Positions 28,915 through 43,962 of a stretch of DNA of 50,237 bases are shown here, one piece after another. A model generated the notes under the pieces. That model worked only from the letters and a program-made list of their open reading frames with translations. It was not told the origin of the DNA and did no database searches. The stretch comes from a virus, in IMG/VR virus record IMGVR_UViG_3300018080_000034; one strand, written 5' to 3'. Each line of letters opens with the position of its first letter. Within the stretch, counting starts at the first letter, position 1. The translations under genes and the position numbers were made by a program.

Positions 28915-29105
28915 CCACTGCGCAAAGACACGCCGTATTCGATCAGCCCTCGCTTAGCTGCGCGTTCCATCGCGCGGTAGCAAACCTTTTCGCACGCGCC
29001 TGTATGGTCTGCCAGGATTTCGTAGGGCCAGCGGCAATCGGCGTATGTACGGGCTTGTCTCACCGCCCAGCACACATGGTAATCACTAATAGCCTTCGCT
29101 TGCAT
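28863..29105 (-). CDS. Small winged-helix-like protein
   Basis: 80 aa. YRAMERAAKRGLIEYGVSLRSGWLTAKG resembles a wHTH recognition helix plus wing. Translationally coupled on both sides. Confidence 0.4.
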   Translation of the reverse strand: MQAKAISDYHVCWAVRQARTYADCRWPYEILADHTGACEKVCYRAMERAAKRGLIEYGVSLRSGWLTAKGHHLLAEGKPW

Positions 29106-30733: not shown

Positions 30734-30954
30734 TCGGCACGACTACGATTCCCTACGGGCATAGTTCCGCCATTCCTCTTAATACGAATACCGCGACTCG
30801 CCATGAGTTCACGGCGAAATCTTGCCTCTGGACCATTGAGAGTCTTTGTTTTTCTACCCATCCCCCGACTAACCTTGGCGGCAGAGGGGTATTCGCTCAG
30901 GGCGACCAGGACATTGAACGCAATTAGCATCCTACGCTTCTTATTGACAGTCAT
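30718..30954 (-). CDS. Small basic hypothetical protein
   Basis: 78 aa. Overlaps both neighbours (4 nt and 16 nt) in the same-strand operon. Confidence 0.4.
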   Translation of the reverse strand: MTVNKKRRMLIAFNVLVALSEYPSAAKVSRGMGRKTKTLNGPEARFRRELMASRGIRIKRNGGTMPVGNRSRADWWNE

Positions 30955-32890: not shown

Positions 32891-33306
32891 TTGGGCACTT
32901 TCACAGTGATCGCAACTTTTTTCGGTTTGACTTCGACGTGCTGAGCGAGCAACGAGAATACGTCGGGATACCGCTCTCGATACCATTCGTACCCTGCAAC
33001 GTCTAGCTCATGCGTAGTCTTCGACTTGATTGGCGGTGGGTATTCGCAGCACTTGGCCGCACATGCGCAAATAGCCTCCACGTCGGCCTTGTAAGACAGG
33101 TCGCGCTTAACGGTGAGTTTATAGCCACCCGAGAGAGAAACTGTTTGTTGCCCCCGCTCTTCGGTTGGAACGAGATCAGCAATCTGTTCCTCTATTGCAA
33201 TACGGCGCTTGCGCGCAATATCCTCCTCGGCTTTGGCGTCTAGCAAGTCGCCCGCGAGGCTATCTAGCCGGCGCAGCGCGAGATCGGTCAAAACGAATTG
33301 GGACAT
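32887..33306 (-). CDS. Hypothetical recombination-module protein
   Basis: 139 aa from the ATG at 33306 (RBS gagaggatgttATG). Coiled-coil N-half. Unknown family. Confidence 0.5.
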   Translation of the reverse strand: MSQFVLTDLALRRLDSLAGDLLDAKAEEDIARKRRIAIEEQIADLVPTEERGQQTVSLSGGYKLTVKRDLSYKADVEAICACAAKCCEYPPPIKSKTTHELDVAGYEWYRERYPDVFSLLAQHVEVKPKKVAITVKVPK

Positions 33307-33331
33307 AACATCCTCTCGTGTAAAGAACCCC

Positions 33332-33375
33332 AGCGGCGGCGCGGGCACCCCCATTAGAAAGCCCGCGCCGCCGCT
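33332..33375 (-). terminator. 15-bp perfect GC hairpin with a downstream T-rich run on the minus strand
   Basis: agcggcggcgcgggc (33332-33346) pairs with gcccgcgccgccgct (33361-33375). The minus-strand read continues GGGGTTCTTTAC. It lies in the 90-nt gap after the DUF669 gene. Confidence 0.45.
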
Positions 33376-33396
33376 TCGGACAACCCCACCCCTACC

Positions 33397-33969
33397 CTAG
33401 CGCGCCCAGGGAGGCTTCGATGCGCCGGCCGGCGGCGCCTGCTGCGCGGGCATGGCTTGTTGCATGGGATACTGTGGCGCGGCTTGCTGCGGCGGTTGCG
33501 CGACTGGAGGCTGAACTGACGGCGCTTGCGCAGTGGCATACGGCGGTTGAAATGACTGCTGAACCGACGGCGCATCCTCAAAAGGCGTGTACGTGCGTAT
33601 CTCGTTCTGGTCGTCCTTGACCTTAACCGAGGCCACGCAAGCCTTGTTGAGAAGCTGACTACTATCGGCAATTGCCGCCAGGCCGACAGCCTGCCCGAGC
33701 GCCGCAAGTTGTCGTAGCCCGATTTCCACGCATTGCGTACTCGGATTCTGGATGTTGATTCGATCCCAGAGCTTGCGATTCTTGGCAGGGCCGTCCAGGA
33801 CCACCATTTGTGTTTCCAGGTAGTGGCCGGTCCCGGCCTTGGTCTGCTTGACTTCGGCTTTCTCGATCAACACAGGGTATTTGCCCGGAGGCAGTACGTC
33901 GAAGTCCGATTGCGGCTCAACACTGTGGGTATCAAAGCCTTGACCGAAGAGACTAGCGAGATCATTCAT
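33397..33969 (-). CDS. DUF669-family protein (phage SSB-like partner of Sak4)
   Basis: Start at ATG 33969 (caggagaacgaaacATG). LPPGKYPVLIEKAEVKQTKAGTGHYLE fits the DUF669 N-terminal pattern. Q/P-rich tail. Adjacent to a Sak4-like ATPase. Confidence 0.65.
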   Translation of the reverse strand: MNDLASLFGQGFDTHSVEPQSDFDVLPPGKYPVLIEKAEVKQTKAGTGHYLETQMVVLDGPAKNRKLWDRINIQNPSTQCVEIGLRQLAALGQAVGLAAIADSSQLLNKACVASVKVKDDQNEIRTYTPFEDAPSVQQSFQPPYATAQAPSVQPPVAQPPQQAAPQYPMQQAMPAQQAPPAGASKPPWAR

Positions 33970-34025
33970 GTTTCGTTCTCCTGGGTGAAGTTGCGAAGTT
34001 ACGGTCGGCGGTATCCGTTCATAAG

Positions 34026-34107
34026 GGCCCTGGCGGGGAATCGAACCCCGTTTTTCTATCCAGGCAGCGTGATCTTGCATTGCAGCAAGAAAATTGCCTT
34101 CCAGGGC
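34026..34107 (-). other. tRNA-like element (perfect T-arm plus 7-bp acceptor pairing, non-canonical middle)
   Basis: Minus strand: GCCCTGG...CGGGG-TTCGATT-CCCCG-CCAGGGC-C. The T-arm is at 34034-34050 and the acceptor halves at 34101-34107 and 34027-34033. I could not draw a canonical D or anticodon arm. Confidence 0.35.
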
Positions 34108-34112
34108 CATGA

Positions 34113-34901
34113 CTAAACAGAGGCCGCCGCGACGGCATCCATTGCGGCTTCCCACGACAACGGAAGCTCGTAGGGCAAGCGGCCATAGACTCCGCGACCC
34201 CCGCCGGGATGCGACGCTCGCTTCTGTGTGTAAAGGAATCGCTCGCCAGCCGCCACGTCAACAGCGCGCTTGGATTCCTTGCCAAAGCCGGCGTCCTCTT
34301 TGCGTACAACGGCCTTTGATTTTGCAAACCAGATCACGTCAGCCCAGCGGAATAGCAGTGCTGATACCTTGTCGTGAACGTCAAACTGGTAAGTGTCGTA
34401 GCTCCCGTCAATCGGGTCGTCGTGGCGCTTGACTTTTACATGTCCGATTAGGATAGAAGCCATTCCGCGATCGTTGCGCAGCGCATCGAGCGCTTGCGTG
34501 ATTGTGCGCCAGACATTTGCGGATTCCGTATACCCCTTAGCGTACCCGCCGCCGACCTTCTCGATGCTATCGACCTTGGCTGCCTGGCATACATGCTGCC
34601 AAATGACCGGCTCCAGGGCCGAGGCGGAATCGAGAACCACCGTGCGGTGCTCGTGCTGCTGCGAATACAAGGCGTAGAGCCAGCCAGTCACGTCCTCTAG
34701 TGTGTTGCACACCGGGGCGACGGTGGCTCGGGCCTGGATACCGGGGTCGTCGCAACCCTCTTCGCCCTTGATGGGCAGTATAATCGGCGCATCGGAGCAG
34801 GCGGCGAAGGTGGTTTTGCCGATTTTCTCGACACCGAGAAGCACGATACGTGGTGGGCGAAGCTGGTTGCTTGGCTGAATGGCAGATAGATCAAAGGCCA
34901 T
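34113..34901 (-). CDS. Sak4-like RecA-fold ATPase (AAA_24) single-strand annealing/recombination protein
   Basis: Walker A LLGVEKIGKTTFAA and Walker B VVLDSASALE. Size 262 aa. Paired with a DUF669 gene. Confidence 0.75.
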   Translation of the reverse strand: MAFDLSAIQPSNQLRPPRIVLLGVEKIGKTTFAACSDAPIILPIKGEEGCDDPGIQARATVAPVCNTLEDVTGWLYALYSQQHEHRTVVLDSASALEPVIWQHVCQAAKVDSIEKVGGGYAKGYTESANVWRTITQALDALRNDRGMASILIGHVKVKRHDDPIDGSYDTYQFDVHDKVSALLFRWADVIWFAKSKAVVRKEDAGFGKESKRAVDVAAGERFLYTQKRASHPGGGRGVYGRLPYELPLSWEAAMDAVAAASV

Positions 34902-34936
34902 AGCTGATCTCCTGTTGAGGTGTGTAAACGCGCCGG

Positions 34937-35155
34937 CTACGGCACAAGTCTGATGGTCAGCTTGACTTCGTTGTCGTCATCCTCGTAGTAATTGCCGAAC
35001 GCGAGTTCCTCAATAATGTCTGCGAGAAAGTTCGCGGCGTCATACCGAGCTTCGTTCATCATGCCGTCTACCCACATCGGCGAAAGTAGCTCGCCGACAG
35101 TCCCGATTGCGGCCTCTTCGCCTGCTGCGGTTTCCATAAATACCTTACGATTCAT
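34937..35155 (-). CDS. Small acidic hypothetical protein
   Basis: 72 aa from the ATG at 35155 (MNRKVFMET...). Overlaps the upstream stop by 11 nt. Confidence 0.45.
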   Translation of the reverse strand: MNRKVFMETAAGEEAAIGTVGELLSPMWVDGMMNEARYDAANFLADIIEELAFGNYYEDDDNEVKLTIRLVP

Positions 35156-35411
35156 TGCGCTTGCTCCATTTAAGATGTGCCTTTCGGCGCGCCATTCTCT
35201 CGCGGCCGGGAAGATGGTGAACAACTGTCTTCGTTCGAGATTCAATGAGTGCAACCAAGTCACTCTCGCGGATGCGCCGCCGAGGTCTAGTGGCCGGTTG
35301 GGTCAGCGTCATGTCCACGTATGGCAGTACGCCATACTGAATGAGCCGCTGTATGGCCCGAGGCTTGACTGCCAATCGCTCGGCTGCTTCGGGGATGGTG
35401 AGTAACTGCAT
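35145..35411 (-). CDS. Excisionase/MerR-type HTH_17 DNA-binding protein
   Basis: From the ATG at 35411: MQLLTIPEAAERLAVKPRAIQRLIQYGVLPYV...IRESDLVALIE. Confidence 0.6.
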   Translation of the reverse strand: MQLLTIPEAAERLAVKPRAIQRLIQYGVLPYVDMTLTQPATRPRRRIRESDLVALIESRTKTVVHHLPGRERMARRKAHLKWSKRNES

Positions 35412-35480
35412 TGCTTGCCTCGACTGTATACCCCTAGTGTAATTGAGTATGCGGCCCGGAGCGGGCCGAAATTGGCCCAT

Positions 35481-35924
35481 TTAGTCATCCCACTCAAAAG
35501 AAACTCGGCTTCTGTGTGACACTAGCTCGCATGGCAGGCCACACTCTAAGAGGCGCATGTTCGCTTTGGAACATGCGCGCCGAATGGCGTCATCGCTAGT
35601 ACGCTCGCCCCAGACCTGATCCTGCAATGCCTCGTAGCTCACGCGCCCATGCGTGTAAACGTACTGGAGTAGTCGGTACTGAGTGGGCGAGAGGCGTGCG
35701 CTGCGATCTTGGCAATGCACCGTGGCGGTATCATCGCAAAACCGCACGCTTGCCTTTCGGCGTTGCCGAGCCTCACACAGACACCCCGCAGGCAAGTCAA
35801 GTTCTAGGAGCCCATCTTCGCGGCGTACCGCCTTTTGGATGGCGACGACTAGCTCCTGGTCTGTCAGCGCAAATAGCATCAGCACGCAATGGGAGAAGAG
35901 ACGGGAAAGAGGGGAGAATGACAC
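35481..35924 (-). CDS. Winged-helix (OmpR/PhoB C-terminal-like) transcriptional regulator
   Basis: LSPTQYRLLQYVYTHGRVSYEALQDQVWGERTSDDAIRRACSKANMRL resembles a Trans_reg_C effector domain. The start could be the internal MLFALT. Confidence 0.5.
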   Translation of the reverse strand: MSFSPLSRLFSHCVLMLFALTDQELVVAIQKAVRREDGLLELDLPAGCLCEARQRRKASVRFCDDTATVHCQDRSARLSPTQYRLLQYVYTHGRVSYEALQDQVWGERTSDDAIRRACSKANMRLLECGLPCELVSHRSRVSFEWDD

Positions 35925-35927
35925 TGA

Positions 35928-36506
35928 TTACTTAGCGTCAGCGCAGGCCATTTCGCCACCGCAAGCACAGGTGGGCGGCCCCACGTCCTCTAGCCACTTC
36001 CTTGTCATGCGCACGATACACCCGCAGTCCTGGCACTCGACCTTTAACATACGAGTGCCCTGTTTCTTCGGTGCGTTGCTGCCAGTGAGTTCAGCATGAG
36101 GGTAGGGGCCGAGGGCGCTGGCTATTTGTTGCAGCCGTTCCGTCAACTCTTCGCCGGCATTAGTTGCCGTCATCTTGCCTTCTGGGCCAATATCCAAAGC
36201 CAGTGCCCGAAAGGCTCCGCGGTGCTTGCACTCCAAGCCCACGACACAATGCACAAGCTCATGCACGAGTGTTGCAGCAACTTCGATAGGGTCGCGTAGC
36301 GCGGGCGAAATGAAAATCTCGAAAGTATCGTCTGCGCTGCACTTACTTGACCACGCTTCGCCAATGCGCCTCTTCTTGGTTGCTAAGGCTCCTTTAGACG
36401 GCCATGAGCACGATACGCGCACCCTTTCTGGTACTGACCTTCCTAGCATTGCGAAATTGTGGCACAGGTGCCGCATACATTCTGTCAACCATGCTTCTCT
36501 GTTCAC
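35928..36506 (-). CDS. SprT-like HExxH metalloprotease-fold protein with a C-terminal Zn ribbon
   Basis: TLVHELVHCV (HExxH) and C-terminal ECQDCGC...CACGG. Confidence 0.6.
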   Translation of the reverse strand: MNREAWLTECMRHLCHNFAMLGRSVPERVRVSCSWPSKGALATKKRRIGEAWSSKCSADDTFEIFISPALRDPIEVAATLVHELVHCVVGLECKHRGAFRALALDIGPEGKMTATNAGEELTERLQQIASALGPYPHAELTGSNAPKKQGTRMLKVECQDCGCIVRMTRKWLEDVGPPTCACGGEMACADAK

Positions 36507-36523
36507 TGGTGCTACTCCTGGGG

Positions 36524-36739
36524 TTATTCCACAAACATAAGGTCGCCAAACTCTACCGGGCCAAGTTGGCGCACTTGCTTAGCGGACAAGCCGAGCTTGA
36601 CAGCGCCACGATAGGCAAGTTCTGGATTGACGGCATGGACTGCGCAGAGGGTGTAGATTGTCATGGCAAGCCACGGCTTACCTTTCGCGTTTGCTGCGCC
36701 AACCTGGCGCGCACGATCAAGAGCCTGTTGGTACGTCAC
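36524..36739 (-). CDS. Early ORF, unknown function (71 aa)
   Basis: GTG start preceded by GGAGTAA; the upstream stop lies within the RBS. Confidence 0.5.
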   Translation of the reverse strand: MTYQQALDRARQVGAANAKGKPWLAMTIYTLCAVHAVNPELAYRGAVKLGLSAKQVRQLGPVEFGDLMFVE

Positions 36740-36744
36740 TGGTG

Positions 36745-36939
36745 TTACTCCGGGGTGAAAGGCTGACCTTCATTCTCGCACGTCATCCATAGTTTGCCTT
36801 TAGCAAGCCGGCGAAAGAAATTAGCCAAGCCGCGCATGTCACCGGCGGCCTCGGCCTTCGTGTCATAGGGTCCGTACTCCATTACGGTGTCTGGCACGCC
36901 GGTAATCCACCATGCGCCGTTGCGTTGCTCTAGGTCCAC
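36745..36939 (-). CDS. Early ORF, unknown function (64 aa)
   Basis: GTG start preceded by CTGGAGTAA. 5-nt spacing to both neighbours. Confidence 0.5.
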   Translation of the reverse strand: MDLEQRNGAWWITGVPDTVMEYGPYDTKAEAAGDMRGLANFFRRLAKGKLWMTCENEGQPFTPE

Positions 36940-36944
36940 GGCGA

Positions 36945-37139
36945 TTACTCCAGTTCGCGAATCACAAGATAGACAATCCCGAGGTCGCCTGGGTCGCTTG
37001 GGTCGCAGGAGTCGCGTTCAACGCGCAGCACTGGCGCTCCGGCGTTGTCACCATCTGTACCGGGGTCATCGAGAATTACCACTACCGGCGCGTTGGCAGG
37101 GAGGCAACCCAGTAGTCTCCATAATTCCTTAACGGTCAC
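36945..37139 (-). CDS. Early ORF, unknown function (64 aa, acidic)
   Basis: GTG start with GAGGTAAGC upstream. First ORF downstream of hairpin/box cassette 1. Confidence 0.5.
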   Translation of the reverse strand: MTVKELWRLLGCLPANAPVVVILDDPGTDGDNAGAPVLRVERDSCDPSDPGDLGIVYLVIRELE

Positions 37140-37181
37140 GCTTACCTCACGTTGCTAGAGTGCTTGCCTTTCGGCGTTACT

Positions 37182-37240
37182 GGACGATCCGGCGCGACCC
37201 CGTGCGCGACGGGGCCGGGCCGGGCCGTCCTTGGCCGGCG
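37182..37240 (-). repeat. Intergenic hairpin family, copy 1 (GGAC subfamily)
   Basis: ggacgatccggc...gccgggccgtcc with the tail ttggccggcg. Directly after the stop of 37245..37943 in the transcription direction. Confidence 0.6.
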
Positions 37241-37244
37241 GGTG

Positions 37245-37943
37245 TTACCCTTTCGTCGTCAGATAGCCACGGATTGCGGCACTGGCGTCCCGAATGACCT
37301 TGGCGTAGGTCTTGGACTCGCGGCCGGTCAGTTCCGCAAGCCGCTTTTCCGGGTCGCCGGTGGTCATTTCGGCGAGTGCTTGCCCGGCAAGCTCATACAC
37401 CGGCCGGCGGGTCGCTTGCTTTGCGGCGCGGCGGGCGGCCTTGAGCTTGTCCTTAGCAGCTTGGACGGCCGCCTCCGCGTCCGCGACGGCCCGCTCTTCT
37501 ACCGTCAACTCGCGTTCCGTCTCTGCGGTCTGGGGTTTCTTCGGTGGCATAGTTGCCTCCTCTGGGGTTGGTGATTGGCCTTTAGGTAGGCCGGCCTCAT
37601 ACGCTTCCCTGATACTGACTAAGCGCTCCCTCCATGCTGCGCGATGACACTCATAGGGTGTGCCGATAAATAACGCATCGGTAGCTTCGGCTTCCCAATT
37701 CAGTTCGCGCGCCATTAGCTGTGCAAGCCGTTCGGCCTGATTCAGCGACGGGCAGGACGCAATACCCGGCGGGAGCACGCTTAGGCCGCTGCCAATATGA
37801 GTCAGTCCCCATTCGCGTTTGTTCGGTTTGCCGGTGCGCGGGTCCAGCATGTTGTGTATAGCGAGCCCGGGCGTGACCAGATACGCGGGCATGGTGTACT
37901 TGCGCCCGCACGTAGTTTTAAGCGAAATAGTTACGCGCTTCAC
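37245..37943 (-). CDS. Early ORF, unknown function (232 aa; coiled-coil C-half)
   Basis: Long ORF in the operon frame. The Ala/Lys/Glu-rich segment AVADAEAAVQAAKDKLKAARRAAKQ suggests a coiled coil. Confidence 0.6.
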   Translation of the reverse strand: MKRVTISLKTTCGRKYTMPAYLVTPGLAIHNMLDPRTGKPNKREWGLTHIGSGLSVLPPGIASCPSLNQAERLAQLMARELNWEAEATDALFIGTPYECHRAAWRERLVSIREAYEAGLPKGQSPTPEEATMPPKKPQTAETERELTVEERAVADAEAAVQAAKDKLKAARRAAKQATRRPVYELAGQALAEMTTGDPEKRLAELTGRESKTYAKVIRDASAAIRGYLTTKG

Positions 37944-37946
37944 GAT

Positions 37947-38315
37947 TTACTCCCTGTTTAAGTCCCACAACTCGCGGTAATTATCCAAGACAAGTCGCTG
38001 GCAACCCGGCGGCAGGTCGCCGAACGGAATCCGCATACCTAAGTGACACTTGCGGCCGTAGGCCGGGGGCCACTTGCCCTTCGGCGAATCAACTTGCTCT
38101 CGGCTTGAGCCGTGCTGCCCAAAGCCCTGCGGATGGAACGGCGCAGCGTTCATTGCCAGATACGCAAACTCTCCGCCGGTTTTGTGGCGGTAGTTACCGG
38201 TGTAGACCACGGTGTAGCGGTCAATAGTTTCCCCGCCATTGTCGTAACAGCGAATCCAGTGGGGCACGCCGTTCGGCATAAGCCGTTCGCGGCGCTCTTG
38301 CTCACGTTTCGTCAT
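37947..38315 (-). CDS. Early ORF, unknown function (122 aa; IRCYDNGGETIDRYTVVYT motif)
   Basis: ATG with GGAG (ccttggagttagcaacATG). The motif block CYDNGG..DRYTVV...PFHPQGFGQHG looks like a conserved uncharacterised family. Confidence 0.6.
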   Translation of the reverse strand: MTKREQERRERLMPNGVPHWIRCYDNGGETIDRYTVVYTGNYRHKTGGEFAYLAMNAAPFHPQGFGQHGSSREQVDSPKGKWPPAYGRKCHLGMRIPFGDLPPGCQRLVLDNYRELWDLNRE

Positions 38316-38340
38316 GTTGCTAACTCCAAGGTGCTAGGGT

Positions 38341-38401
38341 GGACAAGCCGCCGGGCGACCGTCTTGCGACAGAAGCCGGGCGGGCCGTCCATTGCCCGGC
38401 G
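38341..38401 (-). repeat. Intergenic hairpin family, copy 2 (GGAC subfamily)
   Basis: ggacaagccgcc...ggcgggccgtcc with the tail attgcccggcg. Shares both ends with copy 1. Confidence 0.6.
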
Positions 38402-38404
38402 CGT

Positions 38405-39118
38405 TTACACGCGCCAGTTCTGGCTTGCCATGTTCCGGCGCCACTCGTCGCGCCACTGGTCGCGGGTCAAGATTCGCCGATACCACGTTTCGCGCACCCC
38501 TTCGCTAGATACCACGGTTCCGAAGTGCTGCGCGGATACACCGGGTTCGGTATCCTCCGGCTTGCCGGTCACTGTGTAGCCGGCGGCTTCAAGTTGTGCC
38601 GTCACGTCGCGTGCCATTTCTTCGCGAACGTACTTCTCGGCGTATTCGGAGTCGTCGATTCCCCATACTGAGGCGCTGTATTCTTCGCCACCGATAGCGA
38701 AGTTGCACCGCACGCCGTACCATTCCCAGCCGTTCTCATACCAGTTGCATAGGGTTCGCAAAGTGCGGCGGCGTTCTGCCGCGACGGCTTCCATTGCCAC
38801 TTGCTTTGTGGCACCGCTGTTGCGTAGGTACTGGTAAATGCCGTAATCCTCGTCGGTGGGGAGCGTGATAATGATGCGCTCGCGGTCCCAATCGCACCAT
38901 ACGCAACCTTGCATCTTGCGGGTGTCGGGGCAAGTATCAGGCCGATAGCGGTGCTCTTCGATTGTCTCGTGCTCGAATCCGTCGCACGATTCCCACGGTG
39001 GCTCGCCGTGGTCATCGGGCACAACCGTTGTGGCGGCAAGTATGTCGTCGAAATTGACGACGGCGGGGTGTGTTTCGACGACAATCATCGTGTCGTCATG
39101 TCTGACTGTACTTTGCAT
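38405..39118 (-). CDS. Early ORF, unknown function (237 aa)
   Basis: ATG with cggagcaatcaccATG. Trp/Glu-rich; no recognisable motif. Confidence 0.6.
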   Translation of the reverse strand: MQSTVRHDDTMIVVETHPAVVNFDDILAATTVVPDDHGEPPWESCDGFEHETIEEHRYRPDTCPDTRKMQGCVWCDWDRERIIITLPTDEDYGIYQYLRNSGATKQVAMEAVAAERRRTLRTLCNWYENGWEWYGVRCNFAIGGEEYSASVWGIDDSEYAEKYVREEMARDVTAQLEAAGYTVTGKPEDTEPGVSAQHFGTVVSSEGVRETWYRRILTRDQWRDEWRRNMASQNWRV

Positions 39119-39156
39119 GGTGATTGCTCCGAGGTGGTGGTTCTTAGACAGTACGG

Positions 39157-39194
39157 GTTACTTACCTTTTGGCGTTACTAGGGGTTGCGGGATA
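39157..39194 (-). promoter_or_regulatory. 38-nt exact repeat (box cassette), copy 1: gttacttaccttttggcgttactaggggttgcgggata
   Basis: Identical to 39702-39739. It contains both the CTTACCTTTTGGCGTTAC box and GTTGCGGG. Confidence 0.7.
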
Positions 39195-39251
39195 GGCCGT
39201 CGGGCGCCACTCGCGACAAGAGGCGCCGGGCGGGCTATCCCTGCCCGGGGC
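39189..39251 (-). repeat. Intergenic hairpin family, copy 3 (GGATA subfamily)
   Basis: gggataggccgtcgggcgcc - actcgcgacaaga - ggcgccgggcgggctatccc (17 of 20 pairs), tail tgcccggggcg. Confidence 0.65.
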
Positions 39252-39255
39252 GTTG

Positions 39256-39681
39256 CTATTCCAAGTACAATTGGCCGTCGTCGCCCACGTACACGTAGCA
39301 CTCTCCGAAGTGCTTAGCAGCTTCGGTCAATCGGTCGCCCACGTCGCCTAGCTCGCGGTCCCAAAAGCCGGCGCCGTGCCCGTTGCGCGTAAGCCAAAAG
39401 CCATGTCCGGCCATTGCCATATCGGTATAATGCGGGTGCGAATAATCCGCTTCGCCAAGCGCTTCCCCATTGTCCTCTTGGAAGCGCCGGCAATCGTCGA
39501 TTGCCTTTTCCAGCGCTTCCGGGGCGAAGTCTGTCAAGTCGAAATTGCGGTCAAGGGGTTCGCCCCCTTGCGGGGTGGAGTTGTCTGTTTCCGCCCACAA
39601 CGCACACTCCAAGTACGCGCGGGTAAAGTCGTCTAGCTTACGCGCCACGGCGTTAAGCGCTTTCACTTGCTGGTACGTCAT
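39256..39681 (-). CDS. Early ORF, unknown function (141 aa, acidic; AGHGFWLTRNGHGAGFWD motif)
   Basis: ATG preceded by ccccttggagtaacaccctATG. The motifs ECALWAE and GHGFWLTRNGHGAGFWD look family-like but are not assignable. Confidence 0.6.
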   Translation of the reverse strand: MTYQQVKALNAVARKLDDFTRAYLECALWAETDNSTPQGGEPLDRNFDLTDFAPEALEKAIDDCRRFQEDNGEALGEADYSHPHYTDMAMAGHGFWLTRNGHGAGFWDRELGDVGDRLTEAAKHFGECYVYVGDDGQLYLE

Positions 39682-39701
39682 AGGGTGTTACTCCAAGGGG
39701 C

Positions 39702-39739
39702 GTTACTTACCTTTTGGCGTTACTAGGGGTTGCGGGATA
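39702..39739 (-). promoter_or_regulatory. 38-nt exact repeat (box cassette), copy 2
   Basis: Identical to 39157-39194. Confidence 0.7.
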
Positions 39740-39793
39740 AGCCACCCGGCGCCCGTTGCGGAACGGGCGCCGGGTGGGCAATCCATGCCCGGC
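39734..39793 (-). repeat. Intergenic hairpin family, copy 4 (GGATA subfamily)
   Basis: 16-bp perfect stem ccacccggcgcccgtt / aacgggcgccgggtgg with loop gcgg. Flanks gggataagcc ... ggcaatccatgcccggcg. Confidence 0.7.
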
Positions 39794-39800
39794 GCGGGTG

Positions 39801-40088
39801 CTAGATCGGTTGCGGTTCGCCCCGTAACGCGGGGTGATCGGGGAATCGGCTTGCGATATGATCGGTAAGGCAAGCGCTAAACTCATTAGAGCAGCACTCT
39901 TGATCCCAGCGCCCTCCGTCGATGCACAGGTCAATCAAGTCGCCATTGCCGTCGAATTGCGCGAACATGCGCCGGCCCCGTAATTCCGAACACGGCCAAG
40001 CGGCGCCGGGCCGGGTGGCCCAAGCGTGGGTGTCTTCGGCAGATAGCCGCACGTTTAGCACGTCGCCGGGGAGTTGCTTGATTTGCAT
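39801..40088 (-). CDS. Early ORF, unknown function (95 aa)
   Basis: ATG preceded by accacggagcacaccctATG. Confidence 0.55.
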   Translation of the reverse strand: MQIKQLPGDVLNVRLSAEDTHAWATRPGAAWPCSELRGRRMFAQFDGNGDLIDLCIDGGRWDQECCSNEFSACLTDHIASRFPDHPALRGEPQPI

Positions 40089-40145
40089 AGGGTGTGCTCC
40101 GTGGTATTGCGTTCCAGGTTGTGGGGCACTTGCCTTTCGGCGCTG

Positions 40146-40325
40146 TTATGCTCGATAGGCTTGCTGGCAATCGTCCGAGCAACACTTTTGCCAGGGTGAT
40201 TCTGGGGTGAATAACGCGCCACACCATCGGCACTGACGGCCCTCAGTGCGCCACTTGGTAGGGCAACCTAATTCGTGGCACACCACGCCATTGATAACCA
40301 GCGCGTCACAAGATTCGCAGAGCAT
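40146..40325 (-). CDS. Cys-rich Zn-ribbon-like early protein (59 aa)
   Basis: The internal ATG at 40325 is preceded by GAAAGGTAAGTCC; the ORF track begins at TTG 40340. CESC...CHELGC...CRWCG...CCSDDC. Confidence 0.55.
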   Translation of the reverse strand: MLCESCDALVINGVVCHELGCPTKWRTEGRQCRWCGALFTPESPWQKCCSDDCQQAYRA

Positions 40326-40373
40326 GGACTTACCTTTCAATGTTGCTAGGGGATTGCCTGCCTTTTGGCATTG

Positions 40374-40535
40374 CTAGTCGCGCACTCCGCAAGCACGAAG
40401 AAAGCGCTCGCGGTCAAATCGGGAGTTGAATTGCCGGCACACGTTAGCAACGAGGCTCGCAACTCGCTCACGTTCTGTGCGATCGTCGATGTTTGCGATT
40501 GCATCGGCAAAAGCGCGGAAATGTTTTTTCGTCAT
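40374..40535 (-). CDS. 53-aa early ORF (not in the ORF track)
   Basis: ATG 40535 preceded by ccccttggagcaacaccctATG. MTKKHFRAFADAIANIDDRTERERVASLVANVCRQFNSRFDRERFLRACGVRD. The opposite-strand track ORF 40365..40607 looks spurious. Confidence 0.5.
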   Translation of the reverse strand: MTKKHFRAFADAIANIDDRTERERVASLVANVCRQFNSRFDRERFLRACGVRD

Positions 40536-40567
40536 AGGGTGTTGCTCCAAGGGGTTACAGAGTTAGT

Positions 40568-40628
40568 GGATAGGCCGCTAGGCGCCACTCGCGAAAGTGA
40601 AGCCTAGCGGGCTATCCATGCCCGGGGG
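40568..40628 (-). repeat. Intergenic hairpin family, copy 5 (GGATA subfamily)
   Basis: ggataggccgctaggc / gcctagcgggctatcc (15 of 16 pairs), loop containing gccactcgcgaaag, tail atgcccgggggg. Confidence 0.65.
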
Positions 40629-40695
40629 GTGTTGCGATGGGCAATGCTCCGTTCTAGGGGGTGGGGGTGGGGATTGGTGGTTATTGCGTTGCGGG

Positions 40696-40992
40696 TTAGA
40701 ATCGGTTGCGACTCCAACCGCGAATAATGAGGGGCAAGCGCCGCGCGGTCGCGCTAATCAGCGCTTCGGTTTCGGGAGTAACCCGGTAGCTTTCCAATTG
40801 CGCGGCGCAGCGCGCTTGATCGGTTGCCCCTTCTTCGGATTCTGCAATAACGTGATAGGTTTCCGTACCCCACGGGGTTGTTAGCACAACCCCGTAAAGC
40901 GCTAGCGCTTGCTGCGCCCCTTCCCAGTCGCGCGACAGCGCGGTTTGGTAATCGTCGTTTTCGACGATATTCAGTGTTGCCAGTGTTCGCAT
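40696..40992 (-). CDS. Early ORF, unknown function (98 aa)
   Basis: ATG 40992 preceded by gccgaaaggtaagctaATG. The ORF-track start at 41073 would run through the hairpin element. Confidence 0.55.
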   Translation of the reverse strand: MRTLATLNIVENDDYQTALSRDWEGAQQALALYGVVLTTPWGTETYHVIAESEEGATDQARCAAQLESYRVTPETEALISATARRLPLIIRGWSRNRF

Positions 40993-41018
40993 TAGCTTAC
41001 CTTTCGGCGTTGCGGGCT

Positions 41019-41086
41019 GGGTAGGGTAAACCACTCTTGACCACTCGCTAGGGAAGTGGGCAAGGGTGGGCAATCGTGCCCGGGGT
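41019..41086 (-). repeat. Intergenic hairpin family, copy 6 (divergent)
   Basis: ccactcttg (41031-41039) pairs with caagggtgg (41061-41069) at 8 of 9 positions. Loop with ccactcgc; tail gcaatcgtgcccgggg, like copy 4. Confidence 0.5.
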
Positions 41087-41090
41087 GGGG

Positions 41091-41417
41091 TTAATCGACG
41101 GTGTTGTATCGAATTGAAACGTGGTAATACAATTCGCGGTCAGAGTCCGATTCCGGTTGCGGGCAGAGCGCGTAGACACTTGGAGTTGTCGGGAAAGCTT
41201 CCCAACCCTCATCAGCCAAAATGCGCTTCTCCAAAACTTCAGCATCAACACAATCCATTGCAATCTGATCTAGGCAATCGTCGATTGCTTCCGCGGGATT
41301 GTCGCCAATCCCGGTCACGACATGGCGGTATGACGTGTAAGCCGTACCACACCCTTGAAAGTACTGGGGATGCTCGATACCGTGGTCAATCAATTCGTAA
41401 TCGGTTACGCGCTGCAT
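41091..41417 (-). CDS. Early ORF, unknown function (108 aa, acidic)
   Basis: ATG with a weak purine-rich upstream region (ataaggcacacacaATG). Confidence 0.55.
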   Translation of the reverse strand: MQRVTDYELIDHGIEHPQYFQGCGTAYTSYRHVVTGIGDNPAEAIDDCLDQIAMDCVDAEVLEKRILADEGWEAFPTTPSVYALCPQPESDSDRELYYHVSIRYNTVD

Positions 41418-41456
41418 TGTGTGTGCCTTATGTTAGGGGTGTTGCGGGTTGCTAGG

Positions 41457-41657
41457 TCACTTGCCGATGTTCGCGAAGAAACGGATAGCGCTTTCCGTAT
41501 CCTCATAAGTTGCGGGCCGAAGTTGGCAAGCGCGTGGGGCGCAGATAGTCCCATCGACTCGGCGCACCCATGACCACTTCCCTGTTATACGCTCTAGCTG
41601 CCCTGCCATTGTGTGGCCGTCCTGCATTGTCCAAGCTACGTTGTCGCCGATCTGCAT
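41457..41657 (-). CDS. Early ORF, unknown function (66 aa)
   Basis: ATG preceded by acaagaggacacgcaATG. Confidence 0.55.
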   Translation of the reverse strand: MQIGDNVAWTMQDGHTMAGQLERITGKWSWVRRVDGTICAPRACQLRPATYEDTESAIRFFANIGK

Positions 41658-41687
41658 TGCGTGTCCTCTTGTGTTGCGAGTTGCGGG

Positions 41688-41858
41688 TCAAAGGTACACG
41701 ATACGGGCAGTCTGACCGCTTGCGGTAATCATGGCCGGTCGATGACCGGCTTTCGTAAGCGCGTTCCACAATTCGCCGATGGTTGCTGGGCGGGGAAGGC
41801 GGTAGGCGCCTTCTTGGTGCTCGCGGTTCTCGATCACTATCCGGGTTACGTGGTTCAT
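41688..41858 (-). CDS. Early ORF, unknown function (56 aa)
   Basis: ATG 41858 preceded by cctaggaggaacaATG (strong RBS). The ORF-track start at 41900 overlaps the upstream gene. Confidence 0.55.
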   Translation of the reverse strand: MNHVTRIVIENREHQEGAYRLPRPATIGELWNALTKAGHRPAMITASGQTARIVYL

Positions 41859-41893
41859 TGTTCCTCCTAGGTCAGGGTTGCGGGTTGCCTGTG

Positions 41894-42085
41894 TTAGCAT
41901 CTGACAGGTGCCCGGAAGTAAACTTGCGTACCGGACACCCCGATATACTCTGCGCCACGTTGCGCAATTTCGCGCCGCGCTTCGTCAAGTGTTGTGTATC
42001 GGCCGCAATGTGTGCCGATACTCGCGACATTGATGAGTACATAGGGATTGGCGCGCTGCCATTCTGTTGTATCTTGCGTGTTCAC
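41894..42085 (-). CDS. First early ORF (63 aa)
   Basis: GTG 42085 preceded by aaaggggacaataGTG. The ORF-track TTG at 42127 would read through the conserved box. Confidence 0.5.
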   Translation of the reverse strand: MNTQDTTEWQRANPYVLINVASIGTHCGRYTTLDEARREIAQRGAEYIGVSGTQVYFRAPVRC

Positions 42086-42141
42086 TATTGTCCCCTTTGT
42101 GTTGCGGGTTGCTAGGTCACTTATCAAGGTGTAGGAACGTG

Positions 42142-42170
42142 ATTCTATCTAAGTATGCACTATGATTCAA
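42142..42170 (-). promoter_or_regulatory. Sigma70-like early (leftward) promoter
   Basis: Minus strand: TTGAAT (42170-42165), a 17-nt spacer, then TAGAAT (42147-42142). It lies in an AT-rich patch about 55 nt upstream of the first early ORF. Confidence 0.6.
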
Positions 42171-42200
42171 TGATAGTCAAGTATGATCCGATAATTTTTT

Positions 42201-42228
42201 TTGTAGTCCGATGATACAGTAGTATAAT
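42201..42228 (+). promoter_or_regulatory. Sigma70-like rightward promoter, divergent from the early promoter
   Basis: TTGTAG (42201-42206), a 16-nt spacer, then TATAAT (42223-42228). Preceded by an A/T run (ataatttttttt). No convincing ORF follows it. Confidence 0.5.
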
Positions 42229-42340
42229 GTCAGGACAGTCACAGGGTATGGTTAGGTTGACGGCAGGGGCGCAGATGAGGTGTGGATGGGGCGTGGGAGC
42301 TAGTTCAGGTCGGCATCAGCATGGCTGCGCGACTGTCTCT

Positions 42341-42406
42341 TGCTGACCACAGCCCCCCCCCTTGTACAACCCCACGGTTGTACAAGGAGGGGGGCTGTGG
42401 TCAGCA
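42341..42406. repeat. Long inverted repeat (31-bp arms, 1 mismatch, 4-nt loop)
   Basis: tgctgaccacagcccccccccttgtacaacc | ccac | ggttgtacaaggaggggggctgtggtcagca. Counted base by base; no T tract follows. Confidence 0.9.
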
Positions 42407-42582
42407 AGCGTAAGCGCAATAAGGACTTACGTGGGCATCGGTATGCTTATGCTAAATAAGATGGGGTACATCAGGGACAAGCCCGGATAGTCCGTTCGGG
42501 GGGCCCCAGCCGTCAAAATCGTTACCATCCCCCCGGGTTGCTTGCTCGGCCCGGTAATACTTACCCCTACCCTCTCCACATA

Positions 42583-42633
42583 CCCACTGTGCAAAGAGCA
42601 GCGTGCCCACTGTGCAAAGAGCAGCGTGCCCAC
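42583..42633. repeat. 2.2 x 23-bp tandem repeat (cccactgtgcaaagagcagcgtg) with internal dyad symmetry
   Basis: Units at 42583-42605 and 42606-42628, plus a partial cccac. Each unit reads CAC-nn-TGC-n5-GCA-nn-GTG. Confidence 0.9.
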
Positions 42634-43028
42634 CGACCAAGAGCGAGTATCGGCTTTCCCAGTTACATACCCCTCAGGGACCTCAGAGGCCTCGCACACG
42701 GCCTTTAGCGCCCAGGGGCCCAATCACACCAGGGGCCCCACAGGAGGCCACAGGGCGCAAAGTTAGGGGCCTCTGAGAGGGCCGGCCACTGGCTAGCCGA
42801 CCAGTCAGCGGGCCACAGCAGCCAGGCCGAGCGCAATCAGGAGGATGGCCCAGATGGCGCACGACGAAATCAGATTGTCGAGCAAAGGGCGATCCACTAG
42901 ATCGGCCCCCCATCGCAGGGGCGTCAACTGTCACTAAGTGTCCGATGGACACCGGATTCTGCAAAACGAGATCAGGGGGCCTTATACCCCCCGTTGCTCT
43001 AAATATAAGGGAAATAAGAAGTTAATTA

Positions 43029-43078
43029 CTCTCTCTATATATCTCTCTCTATCTCTCTCTATCCCTCCCTTTACTCCG
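43029..43078. repeat. Polypyrimidine (CT-rich) tract with a 19-nt perfect mirror repeat
   Basis: ctctctctatatatctctctctatctctctctatccctccctttactcc. tctctctct-a-tctctctct (43042-43060) is mirror-symmetric about A43051. Confidence 0.9.
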
Positions 43079-43081
43079 TCC

Positions 43082-43312
43082 GTCAAGGTGTCAAGTCCCC
43101 CTATTTCTTAGATCGTAAATAGGGGAACTTCCACCCTTCCGTTTTCTTTCTTCTAAAGCGCTGACATGACACCGCGCGTCAAACCGTAAAGTGATACATT
43201 GAAAGTCCTTGCCGTTCATGGACTTAGGACGATAAAAATGCCATTTGACACCGCCTTGACACCAGCCTAACCGTCACGATCTGTCAAAGTCTCAGAGAGA
43301 GATTTTGACAGC
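43082..43312. promoter_or_regulatory. Cluster of seven TTGAC-type boxes (core TTGACACC, with variants), in both orientations
   Basis: Forward copies: 43167-43173 (tgacacc), 43245-43252, 43256-43263 (two exact ttgacacc, 11 bp apart) and 43305-43312 (ttgacagc). Inverted copies: 43082-43087, 43087-43094 (ggtgtcaa) and 43281-43287. Confidence 0.6.
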
Positions 43313-43578
43313 CCCACCTGCGACATCGTTATGCCCCCTGTGCGCAGGGTGGGGGGGGTATATTCACACTAATCTGCCTCCGTGACATCCACCACGAGTC
43401 TTTGGCCGGCAACCAAAGGCAACGCACGTAAGGAGCCCCATCGGCGCTGTGGGTCACTGTCCCTTTGTGTAATTGCACTGGTGTCGCGTTCCCTACAGAC
43501 TCGCCAATCATAATAGAGTCTGAAACGATGAATGTTCAGCTATCCTTAGCCACATAAGAACAGGAGATTGCAGCTTCC

Positions 43579-43962
43579 ATGATATGTATGATCGAAGGAT
43601 GCCAGGGCGAGGCAGTAGGTAGGGGGTTGTGTCCGACGTGCTATCAAGCAGCGCATCGGCGCGTCAAGAGAAAAGTAGTCACTTGGGATCAGCTAGTCAA
43701 GGCTGGACTAGCGAGGCAGGCAACGCATAGTGGCCGTGGGGCTCTCTCGCCGTTTGCCCTGGCGCTGGAGAAGAAGCTTGGCGCCAAGGCGCCAGGGTCG
43801 CCGCACGAGCAGCCGGTGGCCCGGCAAACGCCCGTGCCCGTCGAATCACTGTCTGCCGAGCCTCTGCCCCTAGTGCCCCCTGAGCCTCCGGCGCCCATCC
43901 CCTCCGAGGAGCCCTATCGACGATGGGCTCCGCCGAAGCCCGGTGACGAGGAGGCGTTTTGA
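43579..43962 (+). CDS. Small Zn-finger protein, first gene of the rightward late arm
   Basis: 127 aa. MICMIEGCQGEAVGRGLCPTCYQAAHRR (C-x18-C-x2-C; three Cys plus a nearby His) followed by a Pro-rich tail. RBS caggag 11 nt upstream. Confidence 0.55.
   Translation: MICMIEGCQGEAVGRGLCPTCYQAAHRRVKRKVVTWDQLVKAGLARQATHSGRGALSPFALALEKKLGAKAPGSPHEQPVARQTPVPVESLSAEPLPLVPPEPPAPIPSEEPYRRWAPPKPGDEEAF

Follow-up and report, generated by a model that had tools for sequence, protein, structure and literature searches.

Conserved hairpins between early genes of a temperate Planctomycetota phage group as candidate mRNA punctuation signals

The early operon of this uncultivated phage contains six copies of a structured element, which are best explained as members of a lineage-specific family of cis-acting RNA structures carried on the early polycistronic mRNA of a temperate Planctomycetota phage group. 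Tentatively, we read them as punctuation of that mRNA, where an RNase III-type cut would be followed by capping with a small helix, and at the same time as cassette boundaries. A covariance model (R1) was built from the six copies and used to scan the whole window, that is, the complete 50,237-nucleotide stretch of DNA analysed here, on both strands with filters off. R1 recovers exactly the six sites reported in the initial annotation, all on the minus strand (37177-37241, 38336-38401, 39185-39251, 39730-39795, 40563-40628 and 41019-41086), with scores of 58.7-82.3 bits and E values of 1e-13 to 1e-19; the next independent match in the window reaches only 18.7 bits. The element is strand-asymmetric, since the same six sites give only 13-37 bits on the plus strand versus 58-82 bits in the sense direction.

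Ten contigs from related phages or prophages, two of them in Planctomycetota genome bins, carry a further 22 copies, for a total of 28 copies in 11 genomes with the window phage included. The six window elements are 55-60 bases in size, and all 28 copies are sense-oriented between small early ORFs. Among 185,579 species genomes, the sole copies are in related prophage or phage contigs, and the family has no match in Rfam. Most relatives lack the element. The size of the family strengthens the argument, made originally from six copies, that conserved structure with varying sequence implies function.

All six window copies lie inside a leftward operon of small early ORFs (36945..42127, minus strand). 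Two overlapping sigma-70-like promoter matches (42142..42180, minus strand), found as sequence patterns by a consensus scan in A+T-rich sequence just upstream of the first early ORF, are the likely start of the element-bearing transcript. The downstream genes (22924-36939) are tightly packed and, by the ORF map and R1, carry no copies. Ten small ORFs of the operon have no Pfam matches and match only PHROG families of unknown function.

Each copy consists of a hairpin preceded by a short 5′ strand, on the minus strand throughout. Copy 1 (37182..37236) has a 49-nt hairpin (37182-37230) of the GGAC...GUCC subtype and the 5′ strand GGCC (37233-37236); it lies 8 nt past the TAA of ORF 37245-37943, scores 66.3 bits with R1 and folds with its flanks at -43.9 kcal/mol. 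Its closest paralogue, at 75% identity, is copy 2 (38341..38397; hairpin 38341-38390, 5′ strand GGGC 38394-38397; 68.3 bits), 7 nt past the TAA of ORF 38405-39118. Copy 3 (39190..39246; hairpin 39190-39240, 5′ strand GGGC 39243-39246; 78.4 bits) is 9 nt past the TAG of ORF 39256-39681, and matching copies occupy the same place in L213, L211, L218 and L200. Copy 4 (39735..39790; hairpin 39735-39784, 5′ strand GGGCA 39786-39790; 82.3 bits) is 10 nt past the TAG of ORF 39801-40088, and its 19-nt apex is identical in L216:6788. Copy 5 (40568..40623; hairpin 40568-40617, 5′ strand GGGC 40620-40623; 81.4 bits, fold z -6.2) is the spacing exception, 72 nt past the TAA of ORF 40696-40992. Copy 6 (41024..41081; 58.7 bits), 9 nt past the TAA of ORF 41091-41417, is degenerate: it retains the 5′ strand GGGCA and the apex, but its base has decayed, with most of the basal stem lost and basal pairs broken, and at -23.8 kcal/mol its fold is weaker than those of copies 1-5 (-37 to -46 kcal/mol, z -2.3 to -6.2). 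The initial annotation placed every copy directly after an early stop codon, which is correct for five copies (7-10 nt) and incorrect for copy 5. The ends it quoted for copies 3-5 and copies 1-2 match the sequence, as does the loop core CCACTCGC in copies 3, 5 and 6.

Conservation at the stem base (GGAUAGCCC...GGYYUAUCC) includes a G.U pair at position 6 and a mismatch of two pyrimidines (Y.Y) at position 7. The mid-stem varies in sequence, yet complementarity is kept and covariation is strong; at the same junction in different phages, stems differ in sequence and remain complementary, as had been seen for the upper stems within the window. In an alignment of 26 copies, 90.2% of the stem cells are paired, versus 70.1% when shuffled and 37-48% with slid partners. 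Both sides have changed at 15 of the 21 stem pairs, and stem covariation (0.605 versus 0.214) is equalled in none of 500 shuffles. Stems are 20-28 positions high (median 23; 21-24 in 24 of the 28 copies), a length of two helical turns. Beyond what was described earlier, conservation thus extends to stem length and also to part of the apex, of which two conserved types recur between genomes. Unpaired positions cluster at 7 (23 of 27 copies), 13 (nine copies) and 17 (11 copies).

Two points about the arms count against RNA processing: DNA-level processes acting on palindromes could maintain complementarity, and the sense strand has no advantage in folding stability over the antisense strand (difference of +0.4 kcal/mol on average, Wilcoxon p 0.73). 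It is rather improbable, however, that the elements act as DNA, with RNA effects being secondary, either as sites of recombination or mobility (REP- or MITE-like elements, folded single strands of the integron attC kind, or PeSL-style homology linkers) or as single-strand priming signals for a Prim-Pol. A Prim-Pol gene is located at 26488-28914, and if a fork left the non-coding region at 42-43.5 kb, the sense strand would serve it as lagging-strand template. The conserved base, mismatch and variable top resemble attC sites, which have these same features, but the attC core triplets AAC and GTT are missing from the conserved base. Distribution among relatives is patchy and copies flank blocks that differ between genomes, as mobile DNA might; in contrast, all 28 copies share one orientation relative to translation and keep a tightly constrained distance to the stop codon across an unconserved spacer. 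G.U oppositions are also tolerated far above A.C (lower stem 25 to 1, upper stem 26 to 12). Within-genome identity of 56-81% means that the copies are not recent copy-and-paste products, a scan of window proteins turned up no HUH/Y1 transposase, and confinement to related prophage and phage contigs likewise argues against a DNA element. REP/BIME sequences of enterobacteria are similar in being imperfect palindromes just past stop codons within operons, with a short conserved motif 5′ of the stem. REPs are shorter and are present in hundreds of chromosomal copies in both orientations, with a GTAG motif and a RAYT transposase, whereas the elements are phage-only, in one orientation and about 50 nt long, and no RAYT transposase was found. 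REPs are known to act as mRNA 3′ stabilisers (Newbury et al. 1987, cited in PMC7509114).

The conserved 5′ strand, (C)GGGC(A), lies 7-12 nt past the upstream stop codon in 24 of the 28 copies. A unit thus runs from the stop codon through a short C-rich spacer, constrained in length rather than sequence, to the 5′ strand and the hairpin. Pairing of the 5′ strand with a GCCC within the 5′ arm can create a small helix, which competes with the base of the stem. Both the strand and its competing helix are new with respect to the initial annotation, which listed ...TGCCCGG(C/G)G as plus-strand flank; that sequence is correct, but in RNA sense it is a (C)GGGC(A) able to pair with GCCC, and not mere flank. 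In the small helix, 82% of cells are paired versus 18-48% with slid partners, and both sides have changed at four of the six pairs, a result matched by none of 500 shuffles, although this covariation is based on few events in six cells, which weighs against RNA processing. One copy, L251:2604, keeps the topology through GGGCGC pairing with GCGCCC, though its basal stem sequence is entirely different. RNA truncated at arm position 12 folds into the small hairpin (mean -9.7 kcal/mol, mean z -1.7).

The 5′ strand and the 3′ arm could be rivals for one GCCC segment in a two-state switch, with the ribosome at the upstream stop deciding the state, a reading that we regard as unlikely. A terminating ribosome covering the 5′ strand would give the full hairpin, whereas in untranslated RNA the small helix would form and free the U-rich 3′ arm GGYYUAUCC, so that translation of the upstream gene would govern whether decay, weak termination or processing takes place. 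The footprint of a terminating ribosome spans or borders the 7-12 nt past a stop codon, which puts the 5′ strand within it or at its edge. Energies of the two states differ little (by 2.2 kcal/mol on average, range -3.4 to 7.8), both helices have compensatory changes, and position 5 pairs in the stem when it is A and in the small helix when it is U. The upstream stop codon is enriched for TAG (19 of 28 versus a background of 27%), mostly TAG-C, which also suits a switch. Against it, most copies have the full hairpin as their minimum-free-energy state, and the analysis found no output domain. The 3′ arm, once freed, would be a poor U tract (two leading G, 2-4 U), and it lacks complementarity to the ribosome-binding region downstream (mean -5.05 versus -5.49 kcal/mol when shuffled).

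A U tract is absent 3′ of the hairpin in all 28 copies, in keeping with what was first noted for the six in the window. The hairpin is only 21-38 nt from the next start codon in most copies, too short for a new promoter before the next ORF, and the consensus scan finds no promoter match in most of these gaps. The initial proposal of a terminator or antiterminator is possible but weakened, because there is neither a U tract nor space for a new promoter. Actinophage phiC31 is reported to have intrinsic terminators or attenuators that act without a U tract in its early region (Ingham et al. 1995, cited in PMC2602773), and strong GC-rich hairpins 7-12 nt past the stop codon would suit that role, but we consider it very improbable here. 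At the same junction, L250 has a hairpin followed by a U-rich run; this shows that U-tract terminators do occur in the phage group, and therefore makes their absence here meaningful. Intrinsic termination by mycobacterial RNA polymerase requires a U tract (PMC3993855). Terminators do not call for a stem fixed at 23 positions, and with no space for promoters, efficient ones would shut off the genes downstream.

Recognition of the conserved (C)GGGC-A-N-GGAU-W-GCCC hairpin, or of the conserved stem base, by a sequence-specific RNA-binding regulator (a phage antiterminator, terminator factor or translational regulator) is also improbable. It would explain why the 5′ strand and basal stem are kept across phages with proteins only 40-70% identical while the mid-stem drifts, and why several genomes have the two apex types in common. 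The topology is that of RAT hairpins overlapping terminators in BglG/SacY systems and of lambda boxB, bound by lambda N: a small hairpin (4-6 bp, 5-7 nt loop) overlaps the 5′ arm of the larger one, so that the two are mutually exclusive. However, without a U tract no terminator is evident for it to regulate, the scanned window proteins include no candidate for the RNA-binding protein, and protein enrichment in element-bearing genomes is confounded with relatedness. It would also be unusual to place six sites within 4 kb and have no promoter separating them; nut sites, to our knowledge, occur once per operon, and the elements follow coding regions in many copies rather than residing in a leader.

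The units also coincide with boundaries of variable gene blocks. A 33-nt module, CGCAACCCCTAGTAACGCCAAAAGGTAAGTAAC (39157..39189, minus strand), lies directly 3′ of copy 3, and an identical module (39702..39734, minus strand) lies 3′ of copy 4. They belong to repeat D6 (39157-39215 versus 39702-39760; 59 nt, 88% identity; downstream identity 81%), and copies 3 and 4, each with its module, flank ORF 39256-39681 as direct repeats. Copies 1 and 2 flank a block missing from the same place in L211. The suggested likeness to the PeSL cassettes of T4-type phages is valid only on the evolutionary side, because copies flank blocks that differ between relatives. Both systems place a repeated intergenic stem-loop, Shine-Dalgarno sequence and start codon between small accessory ORFs, in units flanking blocks that differ between related phages (PMC2839356, PMC4122927). 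PeSL, however, has a strong sigma-70 promoter, an A+T-rich region and a stem-loop that is a measured terminator. Most elements here have a short gap with no promoter match, so this defining component is absent, and recombination at them is a prediction from sequence.

Among the functions first suggested, RNase III-type processing or stabilisation fits best, given the fixed-length two-turn stem, recurrent mismatches, intercistronic location and lack of a U tract. The T7 early transcript has five RNase III signals, which are intercistronic irregular hairpins. Like those signals (R0.3-R1.3), the elements are multiple, interrelated, irregular hairpins of about two turns between cistrons of one early polycistronic mRNA, with mismatches in the stem and no U tract, and the proposed outcome is the same, separate messages with protective 3′ hairpins (PMC3867540). 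The ideal substrate of Escherichia coli RNase III is 22 bp, or two helical turns, and mismatches at the target site favour cutting of just one strand, which can leave stabilising 3′ hairpins (PMC3867540). In the punctuation reading, the two-turn imperfect duplex would be the substrate of a double-strand-specific, RNase III-type endoribonuclease that severs the early mRNA at sites between cistrons. After this cut, or upon opening of the base of the long stem, the 5′ strand would pair with GCCC(G) of the 5′ arm, and the resulting small hairpin, rich in GC and located 7-12 nt past the stop codon, would shield the 3′ end of the upstream message from exonucleases. As a side effect, the units may serve as crossover points for gain and loss of accessory gene blocks, because they place 60-100 nt of repeated sequence at gene boundaries.

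There are differences from T7: the elements share no sequence similarity with its signals and belong to another host phylum, they have 1x1 mismatches in place of a large asymmetric internal loop, and their 5′ strand competes with the stem base at a fixed distance from the stop codon. The basal sequence and this distance are only loosely explained by RNase III, which requires neither, and many relatives manage without the element. No RNase III or double-stranded-RNA-binding domain is found among the window proteins scanned, so the enzyme would have to be supplied by the host.

The observations of the initial annotation are thus confirmed and its interpretation is partly supported. The elements match nothing in the RNA family library (Rfam), and their conserved structure points to an RNA signal, probably one that would serve in the cutting or protection of early mRNA.

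The six related hairpins described in the initial annotation are genuine. R1, a covariance model built from these six copies, was run unfiltered over both strands of the window and recovered precisely those sites on the minus strand (copies 1-6, at 37182-37236, 38341-38397, 39190-39246, 39735-39790, 40568-40623 and 41024-41081; 58.7-82.3 bits), with no other independent match exceeding 18.7 bits. Read antisense, the six sites score far lower (13-37 bits). The ends, stems and loop core first quoted for them are also correct. Five window copies have fold energies of -37 to -46 kcal/mol, and the degenerate copy 6 is missing most of the basal stem. Each hairpin had been described as starting right after a stop codon, which holds for five copies (7-10 nt beyond the stop) but not for copy 5, where the distance is 72 nt. 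Within this 72-nt spacer (40624-40695, minus sense), GGAGCATTGCCCATCG is similar to the 5' arm GATTGCCCACC of copies 4 and 6 and, judging by that likeness, could be what is left of a former copy or cassette.

The family is not confined to the window, as covariance-model scanning of its relatives found further copies. DNA pattern scans and model searches together added 22, giving a total of 28 copies in 11 genomes: five in L200, four in L211 and three in L216 (labels of this kind denote related loci), two each in L199, L224 and L251, and one each in L206, L208, L213 and L218. These loci encode, in the same order, proteins 40-70% identical to those of the window, and every copy is sense-oriented and lies between one ORF and the next on the same strand. 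A single-protein query with the SprT-like gene (ORF 35928-36506) returned one locus, and an alignment query was needed to find the relatives; with it this gene led to 30 loci, and model searches found copies in the contigs represented by L224, L226 and L227. L201, a different contig outside those two model searches, also has two copies. The distribution is patchy, with no such hairpins in relatives such as L119, L120, L221, L225 and L229; the genes of L120 mostly overlap or sit a few nucleotides apart. The short exact pattern GGCWATCCNTGCCCGG was discarded, as it gave mainly single chance matches in viral contigs, and chance matches to the strict pattern were either non-hairpin coding sequence or had low R1 scores (13.7-22.6 bits). 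Rfam 15 gave no matches over the whole window at gathering thresholds and, at E values up to 5 over 36900-43600, nothing overlapping the six copies.

The ends of the window (1-118 and 50120-50237) are identical over 118 nt, so it represents a complete genome, circularly closed or terminally redundant, with a unique length of 50,119 bp and a G+C content of ~55-60% along its length. The plus strand carries the structural genes; among them, the 1571-aa ORF 12882-17597 has an LPD38 'large polyvalent protein' domain and is distantly similar to Pelagibacter, Bacillus and Vibrio podophage proteins annotated as methylase or portal. A long leftward block spans 42127 to 22924 and opens with ~15 small ORFs, which have PHROG matches to unknown-function families only and no matches in a Pfam search. 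Farther along are replication and recombination genes (AAA_24, DUF669, helicase, Prim-Pol and methylase). Between the divergent early and rightward blocks lie 1.4 kb without convincing genes (42128-43578), which may be an operator, origin or non-coding RNA region. This stretch contains a palindrome with 33-nt arms, 97% complementary, and a 4-nt loop (42339-42408), a tandem ~20-mer (~42581-42633), a GA-rich tract (~43022-43072) and at least five GGTGTCAA / TTGACA-type repeats (~43080-43315). No close relative of the window was found among the deposited phages searched; its relatives are environmental viral contigs and two Planctomycetota genome bins, both carrying the element (L216, 7.5 kb; L218, a 1.79-Mb contig of a Thermoguttaceae bin). 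L218 looks like an integrated prophage and provides a lead to the host, its 1.79-Mb Thermoguttaceae contig pointing to Planctomycetota as the host phylum and to a temperate lifestyle.

The hairpin base has the consensus GGAUAGCCC...GGYYUAUCC (in RNA sense, with stem positions numbered from the base). Positions 1-5 are largely Watson-Crick, position 4 being U-A in 18 copies or C-G in six. At position 6, 16 copies have G.U and seven have G-C, position 7 is a pyrimidine-pyrimidine mismatch in 22/26, and C-G pairs follow at positions 8 (26/26) and 9 (22/26). Positions 13 and 17 are further sites of recurrent 1x1 mismatches. The median stem height is 23 positions, with 24/28 copies in the range 21-24. 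Sequence varies freely at mid-stem while complementarity is kept, and two apex types, CACUU...GAGUG and CCGUU...AACGG, are common to several genomes; window copy 4 and L216:6788 (locus:position) have 19 identical apical bases.

The claim that structure is conserved while sequence varies is borne out by the 26-copy alignment, in which 90.2% of cells are paired, compared with 70.1% when partners are shuffled and 37-48% when they are slid. Both-sided changes occur in 15/21 stem pairs (113 cells), and stem covariation is 0.605 versus 0.214, a level reached in none of 500 shuffles. At the junction upstream of the homologues of ORF 38405-39118 (window, L213, L211, L218 and L200), the stems differ from one another and are still complementary; thus, the pairing has outlasted divergence and is not a matter of paralogues alone.

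Complementary arms alone cannot separate a role in RNA from one in DNA. The coding-sense RNA, or at least that strand, is favored because all 28 copies share one orientation, because G.U oppositions far exceed A.C (25 versus 1 for the lower stem and 26 versus 12 for the upper) and because the element keeps a set place relative to translation signals. Greater stability of the sense fold was considered and discarded: predicted stabilities of the sense and antisense folds show no difference, and the G.U and A.C counts are the sole asymmetry.

The translation signals lie on both sides of the element. Upstream, the stop codon is 7-12 nt from the conserved (C)GGGC(A) before the hairpin, hereafter the 5' strand, in 24/28 copies (7-10 nt in 22/28), across a C-rich spacer of unconserved sequence. 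The stop itself is TAG in 19/28 copies, usually TAG-C, compared with ~27% in the window and related loci. Downstream, the next start codon mostly follows the hairpin by 21-38 nt and is preceded by a Shine-Dalgarno sequence; this gap is too short to hold a sigma-70 promoter, and a sigma-70 consensus scan gave no promoter at any of the copies. Programmed read-through, by which translation would continue past the upstream TAG into the hairpin, was rejected, as frames are unconserved and only a spacer length divisible by three brings the TAG inside GGATAG into frame. Masking of the downstream ribosome-binding site by the 3' arm, once the latter is freed by the small competing helix described below, was likewise rejected, since duplex energies with the Shine-Dalgarno region (-5.05 vs -5.49 kcal/mol for shuffled arms; p 0.095) differ in the wrong direction and the arm fits in copy 6 and L213 only.

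Several other sequences recur among the early genes. The repeat AACGCC-RAAA-GGY-AAG has 13 matches in the window, compared with 1.6 expected, including those at 35749-35762, 37163-37176, 39161-39174, 39706-39719, 40129-40142, 40357-40370 and 40996-41009 (minus sense), and its GCC-RAAA-GGY portion is able to form a three-pair mini-hairpin. A promoter at the repeats after copies 1, 3, 4 and 6 was ruled out by their place in relatives, where the repeat stands directly before ATG (AAGAGGTAAGCAATG) and is therefore read as a translation-initiation module. Its AAGG is 7-9 nt before ATG in some copies and relatives and elsewhere has no start codon, as if the module had sometimes been duplicated and had decayed. 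A motif, (C)CUAGCAAC / CCGCAAC, recurs in C/A-rich early-gene leaders (41439-41462 and 42099-42122, also 38320-38335, 39170-39180 and 40340-40350, minus sense), where the TAG that ends the upstream ORF is often part of it. Two early genes have a near-identical 25-nt translation-initiation region, CCCCTTGGAGYAACACCCTATGACG (96%; 39676-39700 and 40530-40554).

Some copies bracket genes. Copies 3 and 4, both with the same 33-nt module behind them, enclose ORF 39256-39681 as 59-nt direct repeats (88% identity), and copies 1 and 2, which are mutual closest paralogues (75%), enclose a two-gene block missing between the corresponding genes of L211. The module that follows the hairpin constitutes a translation-initiation region, and twice in the window a second, functional one comes after it. 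Exchanges within units have been proposed for the PeSLs of T4-type phages (PMC2839356, PMC4122927), and the bracketing in the window is the pattern expected if exchanges were to occur here in the same manner. The initial suggestion of PeSL-like cassette ends therefore stands in part: copies appear to flank blocks that differ between relatives (none close enough for mapping of junctions), but they lack the defining PeSL component, a sigma-70-like promoter located after the stem-loop and before the start codon. A role of the hairpins in DNA-level recombination or priming would suit this bracketing, but the shared orientation and the excess of G.U over A.C favor RNA, and we regard such a role as improbable.

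Integron attC sites carry R''/R' boxes of the form RYYYAAC ... GTTRRRY, with an IntI-type integrase beside the array. Here the conserved base is GGAUAG...CUUAUCC without AAC or GTT cores, and the elements are not attC sites because these core boxes are absent. An integrase-like ORF (21209-22384, 391 aa), whose product we take from its look to be a putative tyrosine recombinase, lies 15 kb from the array and has no Pfam match; its 49% identical homologue in L200 (656-1792) lies within the early block, immediately downstream of the hairpins.

The initial annotation saw no U tract after any window copy, and the same is true throughout the family: 28/28 copies have no U tract, and the following sequence is C/A-rich. 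Canonical intrinsic terminators have a U tract of 7-9 nt immediately after a GC-rich hairpin; without it the elements are not of that kind, and a terminator scan listed none of the copies. Unrelated hairpins occur at the same or neighboring junctions in L250 (~2360-2440), L251 (~5880-5990) and L199 (5398-5440). The one in L250, at the same junction, is followed by a U-rich run, and that in L199 has 13 pairs followed by GUUGUUUCU; canonical-looking U-tract terminators therefore exist in this phage group. Termination by the present elements without a U tract is very unlikely.

A host REP-like element was also rejected, as a genome-collection scan placed copies solely in related phage/prophage contigs. 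Two of its four matches were in such contigs and two were chance matches in unrelated genomes, scoring just 13.7-21.8 bits with R1, one of them the same sequence as a non-hairpin metagenome match. REP/BIME elements with a RAYT occur in many chromosomal copies in the host and have a GTAG motif 5' of the stem, whereas the 5' motif here is GGGCA, and no Y1 transposase domain was found among the window proteins scanned. The absence of the copies from host chromosomes and the lack of a Y1 transposase exclude them from the REPs. The elements are outside all described families compared, namely Rfam, REP, attC and intrinsic terminators. A lambda-type nut site (boxA + boxB) has a small hairpin that is bound by an N-type protein, follows a boxA and lies near the operon start. 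In the present family a small conserved hairpin occurs, the spacer is C-rich without sequence conservation, there are six sites per operon, and no N-like protein was identified. Recognition of the element by a specific RNA-binding regulator is improbable. Co-occurrence was tried as a route to a partner protein, and element-bearing loci do show an enrichment of ORFs 35481-35924, 35145-35480 and 38405-39118; this was rejected as partner evidence because it reflects the closer relationship of those loci to the window.

The 5' strand is as conserved as the stem base and is complementary to GCCC(G) at positions 6-10 of the 5' arm. The small helix that the two form and the basal stem are mutually exclusive. 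After removal of one loop base from each of seven rows misregistered by MAFFT, 82% of small-helix cells pair in the 27-copy alignment, compared with 18-48% for slid partners; 4/6 pairs are changed on both sides (0/500 shuffles), such changes occupying just six cells. L200:5622 pairs GGACA with UGUCC, L216:7276 pairs GGGG with CCCC, and the outer pair is U-A in L216:5872. In L251:2604 the basal stem is wholly different (GCGAAGCG), yet the flank GGGCGC pairs with GCGCCC and the topology is unchanged. Position 5 of the 5' arm is either A, which pairs in the stem, or U, which pairs in the small helix. The alternative fold with the basal stem opened costs a mean of just 2.2 kcal/mol, and an RNA ended mid-stem folds as a small hairpin (mean -9.7 kcal/mol). 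The distinctive features of the element are its conserved base with a fixed mismatch, its ruler-like length of 23 positions and a competing helix near the stop codon.

An RNase processing site was among the functions first proposed, and in length and position the elements do match RNase III-type signals. The T7 early transcript has five RNase III signals, an ideal RNase III substrate is 22 bp long, and target-site mismatches favor single-strand cuts that leave stabilizing 3' hairpins (PMC3867540). Like the T7-type signals, the present elements are two-turn intercistronic hairpins in an early polycistronic transcript. Their recurrent 1x1 mismatches, at positions 7, 13 and 17, are candidates for the internal loop or mismatch that T7-type signals have at the scissile site. 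On the basis of the weightiest features, namely the fixed two-turn length, the recurrent small mismatches, the intercistronic position in one early transcript and the lack of terminator or promoter features, we tentatively infer that the elements are RNase III-type, double-strand-specific processing signals of early mRNA. Once the long stem has been cleaved, or has opened at its base, the competing helix would form a compact 3' hairpin on the upstream message, a cap placed as near the stop codon as a terminating ribosome would allow. The T7 RNase III signals would then be the functionally nearest system, and PeSLs the nearest in evolutionary behavior.

The main rival gives the competing helix a different task: the terminating ribosome would toggle the two helices and make the full duplex conditional on upstream translation, and the element would belong to a new type of RNA switch that senses translation. 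Each terminating ribosome would melt the helix 7-12 nt past the stop and let the basal stem close, and the two-turn duplex, with its cutter or binder, would be present only on messages whose upstream gene is translated. The mutually exclusive helices and their distance from the stop codon are compatible with such a switch; we consider it unlikely, though less so than the regulator or a DNA-level role.

In T7 and in T4-type phages of enterobacteria, early transcripts are known to be punctuated by intercistronic hairpins, and to our knowledge almost nothing is known of gene expression in Planctomycetota phages. The present family is undescribed and has no Rfam match, and its 28 copies in 11 genomes, with a calibrated model, suffice for follow-up in metagenomes. 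Its 23-position stem, conserved pyrimidine mismatch and competing helix, whose distance from the stop codon is fixed, are unusual and testable. If the units are crossover points, they would help to explain the exchange of accessory early genes in this phage group. If the competing helix senses terminating ribosomes, it would be a compact means of tying RNA processing to translation and, were the switch true, each early cistron would have its processing or decay coupled to the translation of its neighbor.
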